Shown here piece after piece: positions 11,610-14,409 of a stretch of 64,000 bases of DNA (the first letter of the stretch is position 1; each line of letters begins with the position of its first letter). The notes below the pieces were generated by a model. The model had not been told where the DNA came from, did no database searches, and worked only from the letters and a program-made list of their open reading frames with translations. The position numbers and the translations under genes were made by a program. Origin of the DNA: Lineus longissimus (lineage: Eukaryota); assembly GCF_910592395.1 (NCBI RefSeq), contig NC_088309.1, forward strand, positions 22,833,923-22,897,922. The letters run 5' to 3'.

Positions 11610-14409
11610 CTGGAAATGATAAGATGATCAACGAAAATCATTTCGCTGTGACTACAGGAATGAAAAGCAGTGTGGCTCCATTCTACTTACTCTTTAATTG
11701 CAATCTATAACCTGCCCCAAAAAATTGTTTTGGCAACTTGTTCAATATAGAAAACCCTCACTCCTTCGACAGGACACCAGTGACTGTTCATGGACATTGA
11801 CCAAGAAGTGTGTGGTTATTAGTTTAGCCCTGTGGCACTACACCCAAGTGAGCCGAGTTCCATATAAGCTTACCTGTATCGCTGCTCCAGCATGGACCAT
11901 CGCCCAGTCTGGCATCCAGCTGCAACCAGGGACGACCAGGCCATACATTGCCATACAGTAGTAGGGAATGAAGTAGAACATGTACACCAGCATCTGTAGT
12001 ATGCAGAAAGACGATGTGTGTCAGCTAAGGTCAAACTACTTGCAACATAAACTGTTAAGAAGTTTTCATAAAATGGGTACCACAAATGGAAGGAGCAGAA
12101 CTCTTAGAGAAATTAACAATGCATGTGTATCAGTCATTTTTAAAAGAGTATCAAATAAACAGAAAATGTTCATTAAACTAGTGTTACATTACCTGCAACA
12201 TTGGGTATGATGTGGGATCTGTCAAGTATGGTTCTACATCCCTGATGTACCATGGATTACAACCGAGAACAGTCTGAAAAAAGATTGATGATTTTGAAAT
12301 ACATTACAAATGGCGGTCATCTTGGTCAAAGTCATGTACTGGCATGCACCTTTGACAGGTACTCTCCATTGAACCTACCCATCGTAGCAGCAGTTGAAAA
12401 CTGCCTTGAACCAACTGCTTGTTTATCAGGTGGAGTAAATCTTATCATAATCACTCTATGATTGCGCTAGTAACAGCCACCCACACTGATTTACAGTGAC
12501 ACTCGATGAACAAATAGTCACAAGCAACAAGTCATTTACTTACGAATCCCCTGAACATTGCCAACACCAGAGATGCAGCCAAATACAGGATGAGCAACAT
12601 ATCCACAGGTCTTTTCCAGATTGGAGAATACTCAGTTTGAGACTGGAATGCAAAAACAAAGAAGGAATAAGACTGGCAGTGCTTTTCACAATCAAACAAC
12701 TGGTCAAGACCTTTAAAAGTGGATTATTTACCTGTTTCTTGGGAATGGTAGCCTTGGGCCTCTCATTGAGAAAACGAGCAAGGGCATATATTGGAACAAT
12801 CACATATGGAACGTTGAGAAGGAAGGACCACTTCACACCATATTTTCCTGGCAACAGAAAAGTAATGTACATGTAGTGAAACAACACTGTACAGATGCTG
12901 CTTGTTTGATTCCCGAAAATAAATTTTGACAAAATAAATTGGATCTATTTTTTAGCAGATCTGATGTGAGATACTCACATTGCAAAGATTATTGTTTAGT
13001 GTGTCAAGTTAAATTCTCAATCTCTATTTCACAGCATCACCATACAGTGTTATAACTTACCAATTACATTTCCTGGCAGGAAGACAAACAAGCTATGGCC
13101 AATAGAGCCAACCCAGTAGAGACCGCAGTCACGGAAGTCTTGGCTGGAACAAAAATGAGGACTATGGATGCTGAATACTACCAAATCATAAGTCATGGCG
13201 TCAGTAAACTTCGAATTACTTCGTTTGAATAAATCATGGAAACATCACGGGAGGCAAGGCAAAACAAAGTGATACCAGATAAGCAAAGATTCAATGTTCT
13301 CTACATACAATATGCTTGAAGTTTAAACAAGTCAAAGGGGCAGATAAGCAATGGACTTTTTCTAAATGAATCACAAAGTTTGAGGAAAATCAAACGTGAA
13401 AAGGTGTTTTTTTGAGTAGGTCATCACGCGTTTGTTTTTGAGGTGGGCTGAGGTAGCATGATGCAAGGCAATCGCGCTGACTTACTTTCGGTCCATAGCC
13501 CACAGCATTATTAAGTACATAGCATAGTGTCCAATACCATCCCAATAACAAGCAAGGATTCCCATTGAAGATGCCAAATAGGGCTCCCCATCCTTCAGGT
13601 AGAACTCCATGATACCCGTCACCCAGCCATCATTCTCCAAACTTAAGAACAAGTCACACACTGAACTGAAGCAGCAAATGCTGAAAACTTAAAAGCAAAA
13701 TAGCAAGCTATAAGAAATGAAGCCTCAACTTACTTCCAAGCCATAGCAGAGAGCATCATGAGGTACATGACATAGTGTCCTATACCATCCCAGTAGCAGA
13801 TCAAAGTTCCATGGGCAGATTTAAGGTATGGTTCACCATCTTTCAGATAGAATGACACAAAGCCGGACAGAACACCATCATTTTCCAAACCAATCAGAAG
13901 GTCAATAACTGAACTGAAGCAGCAGATACTGAAAACTAATACATGAAAACCATAATAGTATAGATTGTTAGGCCATATTGAAATCCACTGACAGACTTGT
14001 CTTGTCAATTTCGACAGGAGGGATTAACATAGGTAAATACTTCTTTGGAGTTGGAGATTGGTTGTGAGGTGTCAACAGTGACACTGCAAGTGACACGGAC
14101 AGTGTCACACAATCACAGCGATGAGTGGCATGCATTTTGTCATGTGTGCACTCTGACTCAAGTAAAGCTAAAAAACTCAGTATGTCTATCAAAAAAACAG
14201 ACCATCTCACCATAGAAAAGTGGGTCACTAAGCTTCTTCTTGTTGTCAGCAAGCACGTAGGTCAAGACAACAATTGCAATCAAACTGATCACTCCAGCAG
14301 CAAAAACGTATTTTTCGTCGAGAGATGCTGCCATCAAATTCAACATATACGCGATGGGTATCCCAGTAAGGGAAGCCAGGAAAACAGCAGTCGATGCAGA
14401 AAGACCCAT
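11378..14409 (-). CDS. TM6SF1: transmembrane 6 superfamily (TM6SF1/TM6SF2-type, two EXPERA domains) gene; exons 14211-14409, [13734-13928 and 13486-13680: duplicated alternative exon pair], 13061-13143, 12732-12847, 12544-12642, 12193-12273, 11874-11993, 11378-11609
   Basis: Spliced product is [25 protein letters not shown]...[264 protein letters not shown]...KKIK*. Blocks EFYxKxGEPYLxxAHGxxICYWDG, GLYWVGS and [13 protein letters not shown] are near-identical to human TM6SF1/TM6SF2. All junctions are GT/AG. The exon1-exon2 phase join is ambiguous (see findings). Confidence 0.85.
11874..11993 (-). CDS. TM6SF1: TM6SF exon 7
   Basis: Encodes [40 protein letters not shown]. Acceptor ctacag| and donor CAG|gtaagc. 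Confidence 0.8.
12193..12273 (-). CDS. TM6SF1: TM6SF exon 6
   Basis: Encodes [27 protein letters not shown]. Acceptor ttttttcag| and donor CAG|gtaatg. Confidence 0.75.
12544..12642 (-). CDS. TM6SF1: TM6SF exon 5
   Basis: Encodes [33 protein letters not shown]. Acceptor cattccag| and donor TTC|gtaagt. Confidence 0.75.
12732..12847 (-). CDS. TM6SF1: TM6SF exon 4
   Basis: Encodes [38 protein letters not shown]. Acceptor ttgccag|GA and donor CAG|gtaaat. Confidence 0.75.
13061..13143 (-). CDS. TM6SF1: TM6SF exon 3
   Basis: Encodes [29 protein letters not shown]. Acceptor ttgttccag| and donor ATTG|gtaagt. Confidence 0.75.
13486..13680 (-). CDS. TM6SF1: TM6SF exon 2b (195 nt; second, divergent copy of the same exon - probable mutually exclusive alternative exon)
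   Basis: Same acceptor (gttttcag|C) and donor (CGAAA|gtaag) context, same length and phase as 2a. Encodes [65 protein letters not shown], about 70% identical to 2a. Confidence 0.6.
13734..13928 (-). CDS. TM6SF1: TM6SF exon 2a (195 nt; first copy of the duplicated exon)
   Basis: Acceptor gttttcag|T and donor GGAA|gtaagt. Encodes [65 protein letters not shown]. Confidence 0.7.
14211..14409 (-). CDS. TM6SF1: TM6SF exon 1 (ATG 14409-14407)
   Basis: Signal-anchor-like N-terminus in frame with track ORF 14158-14439(-). Donor TATG|gtgagat. The exact donor and phase are uncertain. Confidence 0.6.

Follow-up and report, generated by a model that had tools for sequence, protein, structure and literature searches.

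The TM6SF gene of the bootlace worm Lineus longissimus contains a tandem-duplicated pair of homologous exons, 2a and 2b, whose mutually exclusive splicing very probably yields two isoforms of 378 aa, identical except for residues 67–134; this is a joint assessment of the whole explanation, including the enforcement of exclusivity by steric hindrance and by the reading frame. The gene lies on the minus strand of the window (the whole 64,000-nt stretch of DNA that was analyzed) and has eight exon positions, the second of which is duplicated. RefSeq contains exactly two isoforms for L. longissimus, XP_064620914.1 (X1, with 2a) and XP_064620915.1 (X2, with 2b), which are each 378 aa in length and otherwise identical, and no isoform containing both exons was present in the protein cluster; transcript support consists here of these RefSeq isoform models. 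The mutually exclusive use that an earlier note on this DNA had proposed is hence supported. The pair is an ordinary instance of mutually exclusive alternative splicing, with both isoforms already in RefSeq, and current understanding is not overturned.

Exon 1 (14211..14409, minus strand, 199 nt) starts with the ATG at 14409 and ends at the donor TATG|gtgaga at 14211, which is the sole usable one and passes one codon base to the next exon. It is followed, on the same strand, by intron 1 (13936..14210, 275 nt), the 3′ end of which (...catgtattag|) forms the exon 2a acceptor, by exon 2a (13734..13935, 202 nt), by a spacer intron of 46 nt (13688..13733) that extends from the 2a donor AA|gtaagt to the 2b acceptor tttaag|, by exon 2b (13486..13687, 202 nt, open frame), by an intron of 342 nt (13144..13485), and by exon 3 (13061..13143, 83 nt). 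Both 202-nt exons are entered with one base from exon 1 at in-frame acceptors (tattag| for 2a and tttaag| for 2b) and are left at AA|gtaagt donors with two bases carried into exon 3, whose first base closes the codon left open by either of them; exon 2a thereby encodes residues 67–134 of isoform X1 (TM3, a loop with a short helix, and TM4), and exon 2b the same residues of isoform X2. Exons 4–8 (12847-12732, 12642-12544, 12273-12193, 11993-11874 and 11609-11373, stop included; minus strand) are all single-copy, and a third copy of exon 2 was searched for within the window and not found, in agreement with the earlier description of the rest of the gene as single-copy. The two gene models, in which exon 1 is joined to exon 3 and the following exons through either 2a or 2b, each translate into 378 aa and match the corresponding RefSeq isoforms residue for residue. 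A Calx-beta gene neighbors the TM6SF gene.

The proposal that two adjacent homologous minus-strand exons are located here is borne out by a gapless alignment, in which 2a and 2b are identical at 138/202 nt (68%) and 48/68 aa (71%; BLASTP E = 5e-35), close to the identity of ~70% that had been estimated. The exons had, however, been drawn as 195-nt units at 13928-13734 and 13680-13486, of which the 3′ ends are correct and the 5′ ends are 7 nt off. A 195-nt model is out of frame with the exon 1 donor, runs into stops within ~12 codons in both exons, and also conflicts with the RefSeq proteins and with orthologous exon borders. The acceptor on which it depended, gttttcag|, was misidentified: the heptamer TTTTCAG with which exon 2b begins (13681..13687, minus strand), and which likewise opens exon 2a (13929-13935), is coding in both exons, where G|TT TTC AGT is read as V-F-S, and the real acceptors are situated 7 nt upstream. 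Equal length and phase nevertheless hold for the two exons, at 202 nt each, and the earlier description of the gtaag donors and of the conserved peptide motifs was correct. A 202-nt exon with AG|..|GT borders is conserved at four lophotrochozoan loci, those of Tubulanus, Mytilus, Liolophura and Gigantopelta.

Since 202 cannot be divided evenly by three, only the inclusion of a single exon gives an open frame; inclusion of both 2a and 2b results in a frameshift and a stop at codon 145, and skipping of both results in a stop at codon 93. This consequence takes the place of the reason originally offered for exclusive use, namely that 65 extra residues would break the first EXPERA domain. The spacer measures 46 nt as against 89–342 nt for the other introns of the gene, about half of the next shortest (89 nt), and contains branch-point-like motifs whose candidate branch A follows the 5′ splice site by 16 or 23 nt. 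A 5′ splice site and its branch site must be separated by approximately 50 nt, and at a distance of 35 nt assembly is abolished (PMC6692369); by this threshold, which derives from vertebrate and viral systems and may not be that of nemerteans, the spacer is too short. Exclusivity could accordingly be pictured in two layers. The first would be steric hindrance, with U1 bound at the donor of 2a lying 16–30 nt from U2 bound at the branch point of 2b, too close for spliceosome assembly across the 46-nt spacer, and the second would be the reading frame, with transcripts that contain both or neither of the exons carrying an early stop and being removed by NMD. Exon proximity and mRNA surveillance are both listed among the known ways of keeping exons mutually exclusive (PMC3585155).

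Steric hindrance at the 46-nt spacer is inferred by analogy with exons 2 and 3 of alpha-tropomyosin, for which mutual exclusion has been attributed to this mechanism (Smith and Nadal-Ginard, 1989, as cited in PMC6692369 and PMC7969005). The two systems share adjacent homologous exons, an upstream donor too close to the downstream branch point (in Lineus a predicted one), and, going by the RefSeq isoforms of Lineus, one exon per mRNA. In alpha-tropomyosin, however, the intron is longer and the closeness is due to a branch point placed unusually far away, whereas in Lineus the entire intron has a length of 46 nt and the branch point is a candidate. The second layer resembles that of the FGFR2 exons IIIb and IIIc, which are mutually exclusive exons backed by NMD (as cited in PMC3585155): in both genes, transcripts with both or neither of the exons are out of frame with an early stop, and only single inclusion is productive, although the choice of exon in FGFR2, unlike that in Lineus, is made by well-studied tissue-specific factors.

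It is possible, although clearly less probable, that exclusivity is governed mainly by competing RNA structures or by regulated splicing factors, NMD acting as a fallback, and that the 46-nt spacing is a leftover of the duplication. Some animals splice introns of ~40–50 nt, and introns of ~46 nt are spliced in some species; moreover, the choice between 2a and 2b requires some regulator in any case. The TM6SF gene of Mytilus is instructive on this point. As in Lineus, the homologous 202-nt TM3–TM4 exon is duplicated, two equal-length isoforms exist (RefSeq XP_076101556.1 X1 and XP_076101557.1 X2), and double inclusion causes a frameshift; unlike in Lineus, 3.7 kb separate the two copies, a distance at which steric exclusion cannot apply, and close spacing is evidently not required for such a pair. 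However, it is in Mytilus, with its long spacer, that a double-inclusion isoform does occur, since RefSeq also lists X3, a frameshifted isoform with both exons. The spacer of a related nemertean was also short (53–59 nt) before a MITE inserted into this intron and expanded it to the present 293 nt, a natural case of spacer lengthening that is confounded by the decay of exon 2b in that species. As for RNA structures, a scan for complementarity of the docking/selector type across 13100-14260 yielded nothing significant, only short inverted repeats of 71–85%, and the local fold over the spacer was no more stable than that of shuffled sequence (z = 0.08), so that neither analysis supports a structural mechanism.

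The exon is present in a single copy in Tubulanus, in two molluscs (Gigantopelta and Liolophura) and in amphioxus, and the earlier suggestion that the duplication is lineage-specific agrees with these four loci; it does not extend to Mytilus, in which the same exon has been duplicated. In 99.6% of neighbor-joining (NJ) bootstraps the two Mytilus copies group with each other, and by this sequence comparison the Mytilus duplication is independent of the nemertean one. The related nemertean shows the two-copy layout: one of its exons is 87–88% identical to Lineus 2a at the amino acid level, and its 2b copy has decayed, with an in-frame TAA, indels and loss of the 3′ half. Because this relative carries a decayed 2b, the duplication is older than the split between it and Lineus, and the decay of that copy shows that this span of time is long enough for an unconstrained one to degenerate. 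A protein search with a 153-aa query centered on 2b returned 19 candidates, with no close nemertean sequence among them, a search of metagenome contigs using peptide patterns and then a degenerate DNA motif for FY.KDGEPY returned only chance matches, and a search of the literature on mutually exclusive exons in TM6SF found nothing relevant.

The fate of the 2b copy in the related nemertean bears on the alternative that exon 2b of Lineus is itself a non-functional or decaying pseudo-exon, that X2 represents splicing noise or over-annotation, and that only the 2a isoform matters, a reading that we regard as improbable. Loss of 2b in a relative indicates that at least one lineage can do without it, and the Lineus copy has the longer branch: identity to the single Tubulanus exon is 62% for 2b as compared with 75–78% for 2a (amino acids; the latter value depends on the aligned length), and 2b evolves ~3.5 times faster. 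Exon 2b also departs from the family at two near-invariant residues (F92I and I112A) and has M at position 108, which is usually H or Y. However, it retains 17 of the 19 near-invariant family positions, and its 202-nt frame and both of its splice sites are intact. The differences between 2a and 2b fall at the first, second and third codon positions in a ratio of 19/10/35 (chi-square p = 5e-4), dN is ~0.23 with dS saturated, and omega is at most ~0.1; 71% of residues have stayed identical despite saturated synonymous sites, and when the 64 substitutions were placed at random in 100,000 simulations, none kept at least 48 identical residues or 17/19 conserved positions. Even between 2b and the pseudo-exon of the relative, second codon positions are still spared (10/3/15). 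In addition, X2 is annotated by RefSeq, and the AlphaFold2 confidence of the 2b isoform is the same as that of the 2a isoform. Both copies are under purifying selection, exon 2a being the ancestral-like copy and exon 2b the faster-evolving one; the pseudo-exon that the earlier note had envisaged as a possible outcome is thus not found in Lineus but is found in its relative.

Tandem in-frame inclusion of both exons is less probable still, to the point of being very doubtful. Use of a cryptic acceptor, ttttcag|, after 2a would remove a 53-nt intron and join exon 1, 2a (202 nt), 2b from 13680 (195 nt) and exon 3 in a frame that is open throughout, giving a 443-aa product with a duplicated TM3–TM4 hairpin, and the insertion of a two-helix hairpin would keep the topology of the downstream helices. 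However, no 443-aa isoform was found in the protein cluster, an intron of 53 nt is still under the cited assembly limit (PMC6692369), the TTTTCAG motif is accounted for by its coding role and has related motifs in orthologues, and the sterol pocket, built of six helices, would be disrupted by a second copy of the hairpin. An assembly artefact (collapsed haplotypes or a mis-joined repeat) can practically be dismissed, since it is suggested by nothing more than the tandem arrangement itself, whereas the copies are only 68% identical in nucleotides and differ across codon positions in the manner of coding sequences that diverged long ago, an independent contig of the related species has the same two-copy layout, and the RefSeq models employ both copies.

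The Lineus protein is a TM6SF member with an EXPERA domain and a ten-helix architecture. A phmmer search against the PDB aligned residues 1–359 with human TM6SF1 (chain 10up_A, E = 7e-106), over 100 TM6SF homologues, for which PF26083 is a precomputed annotation, were recovered, and PF05241 (EXPERA) was matched at residues 241–348 with 32.2 bits (cutoff 25.7). AlphaFold2 predicted the same fold, with ten long helices, for both isoforms (pLDDT 90.6 and 90.2), and Foldseek, run against a PDB library older than the TM6SF1 entries, retrieved the sigma-2 receptor (TM-score 0.63–0.71 on target) and EBP (0.52). Placement of the alternative exon in the first EXPERA domain was correct, as the exon spans TM3 to TM4 and EXPERA-1 comprises TMs 3–6 in the human TM6SF1 structure. 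On the basis of this alignment and the models, residues 67–134 are predicted to form a hairpin of TM3, a short helix and TM4 that is the first half of EXPERA domain 1 and part of the putative cholesterol pocket built by TMs 1–6. The cholesterol-pocket residues reported for human TM6SF1 are F72, N77, Y95, residue 115, H119, S150, F154 and Y177, the first five of which, according to the structure paper, fall in the segment of the alternative exon; their Lineus equivalents in the phmmer alignment are F73, D78, Y96, D116, H120, S151, F155 and Y176, D being found in most homologues at position 78, where the human protein has N. All five equivalents within the exon (F73, D78, Y96, D116 and H120) are identical in 2a and 2b. 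More speculatively, the 20 substitutions around these unchanged residues may adjust how the protein binds or gates sterols or how it binds its partners, in which case one gene would provide two pocket variants.

TM6SF2 is a major human gene for fatty liver and lipoproteins, and TM6SF1 has recently been reported to be a lysosomal cholesterol-binding protein. Like the Lineus pair, vertebrate TM6SF1 and TM6SF2 are two versions of one ten-helix sterol-binding protein, although they arose by gene duplication and differ over their whole length, whereas the Lineus versions differ within 68 residues only. Of the eight positions in the exon by which TM6SF1 and TM6SF2 can be told apart, four show the state of TM6SF1 in 2a and that of TM6SF2, or one like it, in 2b; this resemblance is partial, may be due to chance, and is absent from the Mytilus pair. 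The broader view that the TM3/short helix/TM4 hairpin is a recurrently duplicated, swappable module, with exclusive pairs arising independently in a nemertean and in mussels, and that splicing in Lineus, with versions partly mirroring TM6SF1-like and TM6SF2-like states, does what vertebrates do with two paralogues, is rather unlikely. If it were true, a single invertebrate gene would supply two sterol-pocket or partner-binding variants by splicing. Through the exon pair, nature exchanges two of the six helices of the pocket while the known pocket residues stay as they are; mussels show a parallel swap, and together these swaps mark the positions that evolution has varied under a kept fold, which could guide mutagenesis. 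The locus also offers a compact case of mutually exclusive splicing, in which a 46-nt spacer is combined with a frame check, and the related nemertean, with its transposon-expanded spacer and dead second exon, provides a natural variant of it.

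Exons 2a and 2b of the nemertean TM6SF gene are a genuine, selectively maintained tandem duplicate whose use is most probably mutually exclusive, in the classic manner of such pairs, and added interest attaches to their very short spacer, the independent recurrence of the arrangement in mussels, the decayed copy and transposon in a relative, and their location at the sterol pocket. On the minus strand of the region 13300–14100, two look-alike blocks both terminate in AA/gtaagt (the slash marks the splice site), each with a single open frame at the positions (13928–13734 and 13680–13486) where the earlier note had placed a pair of 195-nt exons. 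A gene model was built using tblastn as a guide, followed by explicit splice-site assembly, which yielded a gene running from 14409 to 11373 on the minus strand with eight exons per transcript. The sole usable donor of exon 1 (TATG/gtgaga) leaves one codon base over, and the acceptors in frame with it are tattag/ for exon 2a (13935–13734, 202 nt) and tttaag/ for exon 2b (13687–13486, 202 nt). The duplicated pair therefore exists as noted, with errors in the assigned boundaries, length and phase, as the acceptors lie 7 nt further upstream. The previously proposed acceptor, ttttcag/, was rejected because it places both exons out of frame with exon 1 and leads to stops within approximately 12 codons; the TTTTCAG sequence is coding and gives V-F-S. 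The two exons align without gaps, with 68% nucleotide and 71% amino acid identity (BLASTP E = 5e-35).

A protein search with the 378-aa 2a product identified "transmembrane 6 superfamily member 1-like" of Lineus longissimus, whose cluster comprises two RefSeq proteins: XP_064620914.1 (isoform X1), which is identical to the 2a gene model, and XP_064620915.1 (isoform X2), which is identical to the 2b gene model. The window is thus bootlace-worm DNA, and both single-inclusion isoforms are already annotated as RefSeq models; no account of this TM6SF exon event was found in a literature search.

The 64 nucleotide differences between 2a and 2b are distributed 19/10/35 over codon positions 1/2/3 (p = 5e-4), with dN approximately 0.23, saturated synonymous sites and omega at most approximately 0.1. 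In a neutral simulation, in which an equal number of substitutions was placed at random in 100,000 trials, the open frame was retained in just 10%, and none of the trials preserved at least 48 residue identities or 17 of the family's 19 near-invariant positions. All 19 of these positions are retained in exon 2a and 17 in 2b, where the two exceptions are F92I and I112A; 2b evolves faster than 2a, with 62% identity to the single exon of Tubulanus versus 78% for 2a. AlphaFold2 predicts the same secondary structure for both isoforms at equal confidence (pLDDT 90.6 and 90.2).

As 202 is not divisible by three, inclusion of both exons leads to a translation stop at codon 145 and skipping of both to a stop at codon 93, and a full-length protein is obtained from single inclusion only. 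The mutual exclusivity suggested in the earlier note is the best-supported reading, on the evidence of RefSeq X1 and X2 and of the frame, but for another reason than the duplication of a segment within the membrane bundle that was given there: double inclusion shifts the frame. Between the 2a donor and the 2b acceptor lie 46 nt (13733–13688), the remaining introns of the gene measure 89–342 nt, and branch-point-like motifs in the spacer would place the candidate branch A just 16 or 23 nt away from the 5′ splice site. In vertebrate and viral rather than nemertean systems, approximately 50 nt is needed between the 5′ splice site and the branch site, and assembly is abolished at 35 nt (summarised in PMC6692369, which links the mutual exclusivity of alpha-tropomyosin exons to this limit); known fidelity mechanisms include exon proximity and mRNA surveillance (PMC3585155). 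From the spacer length, the published limit and the frame stops, we infer that steric exclusion across the 46-nt spacer would block 2a–2b splicing and that frame-dependent decay would back it up. No sign of docking/selector RNA pairing was found at the locus, and the fold of the spacer region was no better than that of shuffled sequence (z = 0.08). Joining the cryptic ttttcag/ of 2b after 2a would remove a 53-nt intron and give an in-frame 443-aa product with a duplicated hairpin; the protein cluster contains no such isoform.

The 202-nt exon is single-copy in the palaeonemertean Tubulanus polymorphus and in Gigantopelta and Liolophura. In amphioxus it is also single-copy and interrupted by an extra intron, so that the 202-nt exon is not universal beyond the lophotrochozoans examined; in Branchiostoma floridae (locus L009:2358–2740), this intron lies between FYMKE and GEPYL. 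In a neighbour-joining analysis of the 68-residue segment, Lineus 2a and 2b were grouped in 77% of bootstraps. The 7.6-kb contig L005 (Ga0451425_143192, sample 3300040954), reached through a 94-aa JGI fragment (P0124), carries a complete orthologous TM6SF gene of a closer nemertean relative (72–89% amino acid identity per exon); the neighbouring Calx-beta gene has an 83% match at a second locus of this sample. Exon 2a is intact in L005 (87% nucleotide identity, dN 0.06, dS approximately 0.55, omega approximately 0.1). The second copy (about L005:2996–3130) has decayed, with an in-frame TAA, several indels and loss of its 3′ half and donor. Because this pseudo-exon resembles Lineus 2b (77%) more than it does either 2a (69–73%), the duplication is older than the split between the two species; second codon positions are still spared relative to Lineus 2b (10/3/15), and 2b was probably coding in their common ancestor. 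An unconstrained copy thus decays visibly over this divergence time, which supports the view that 2b is still under constraint in L. longissimus. The pseudo-exon adjoins a 230-nt element in the 2a–2b intron (L005:2755–2984; termini CCCTTTAAGGAC / CCCTTTAAAGAC), classified as a piggyBac-type MITE on the basis of its TTAA duplications at the target site and its inverted CCC...GGG termini; owing to this insertion the spacer measures 293 nt, and 53–59 nt without it.

Two copies of the 202-nt exon are also present in Mytilus galloprovincialis (OZ263148.1, L002:3425–3626 and 7331–7532), and the pair is visible in proteins of M. edulis, M. trossulus and M. californianus. The clustering of the Mytilus copies in 99.6% of bootstraps in the same analysis indicates a duplication that was apparently independent of that in Lineus. 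Mytilus RefSeq X1 and X2 each contain one copy, whereas X3 (337 aa) starts in a shifted frame of copy 1 and runs on into copy 2, and hence represents a double-inclusion transcript. The Mytilus copies lie 3.7 kb apart, in contrast to 46 nt in Lineus, so that steric exclusion cannot operate in Mytilus; no double-inclusion isoform was found in the Lineus protein cluster, a difference consistent with steric exclusion by spacing.

In the AlphaFold2 models, the alternative segment (residues 67–134) comprises most of helix 63–85 (TM3), a loop, short helices 94–105 and helix 107–132 (TM4). The Lineus protein aligns to human TM6SF1 in the PDB (10up; 3A mutant 11br; E = 7e-106). The accompanying preprint (10.64898/2026.04.01.715928) reports that this protein is a homodimer, that each protomer has ten helices and encloses a cholesterol with TMs 1–6, that TMs 3–6 form the first EXPERA unit, that F72, N77 and Y95 are pocket residues, and that N77, residue 115 and H119 are the counterpart of the EBP catalytic core. 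The placement of the pair in the first EXPERA domain is thereby confirmed. The alternative exon contains all of the Lineus equivalents (offset +1), F73, D78, Y96, D116 and H120, and 2a and 2b share the same residue at each of them. These unchanged residues are surrounded by the 20 differences between the exons, some of which (G82S, I112A, H108M) may face the pocket, judging by helical periodicity. The third catalytic-core residue is given as Glu115 in the preprint (10.64898/2026.04.01.715928), and position 115 of the deposited 10up sequence is Asp (YWDG motif; residue count anchored on N77).

Of the eight positions in the exon that distinguish vertebrate TM6SF1 and TM6SF2, seven also differ between 2a and 2b (Fisher p = 5e-4). 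Exon 2b matches TM6SF2 at 82, 94, 110 and 133 and carries a similar aromatic at 88, and 2a matches TM6SF1 at 82, 88, 94 and 133. These eight may merely be the variable positions of the segment, and the Mytilus pair differs at none of them; the parallel is speculative and is offered as a lead only.

Close to the TM6SF start codon region, on its upstream side, lies a (TG)n microsatellite (about 14600–14640), which reads CVCVCV or HTHTHT in ORF translations. Four MITE-like repeats of approximately 90–210 nt with inverted termini TACAGTAGAACCTCTCTATTAAGGACA also occur upstream of the gene (14655–14830, 16257–16468, 17523–17701 and 18074–18167), and copies on opposite strands are 92–95% complementary. 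On the plus strand, ORFs at 6361–7555 encode a voltage-sensor domain (Pfam Ion_trans, E = 7e-13) and then a coiled-coil-like segment, suggestive of an HVCN1-type proton-channel gene in convergent orientation to TM6SF, and a long run of Calx-beta repeat exons (Pfam PF03160) extends from about 20500 to 33600, its best named relative being "G-protein coupled receptor 98" (ADGRV1-like). For a 241-aa open frame on the minus strand (41709–42431), the match to C-type lectin is weak (E = 4e-4) and falls just short of the Pfam cutoff.
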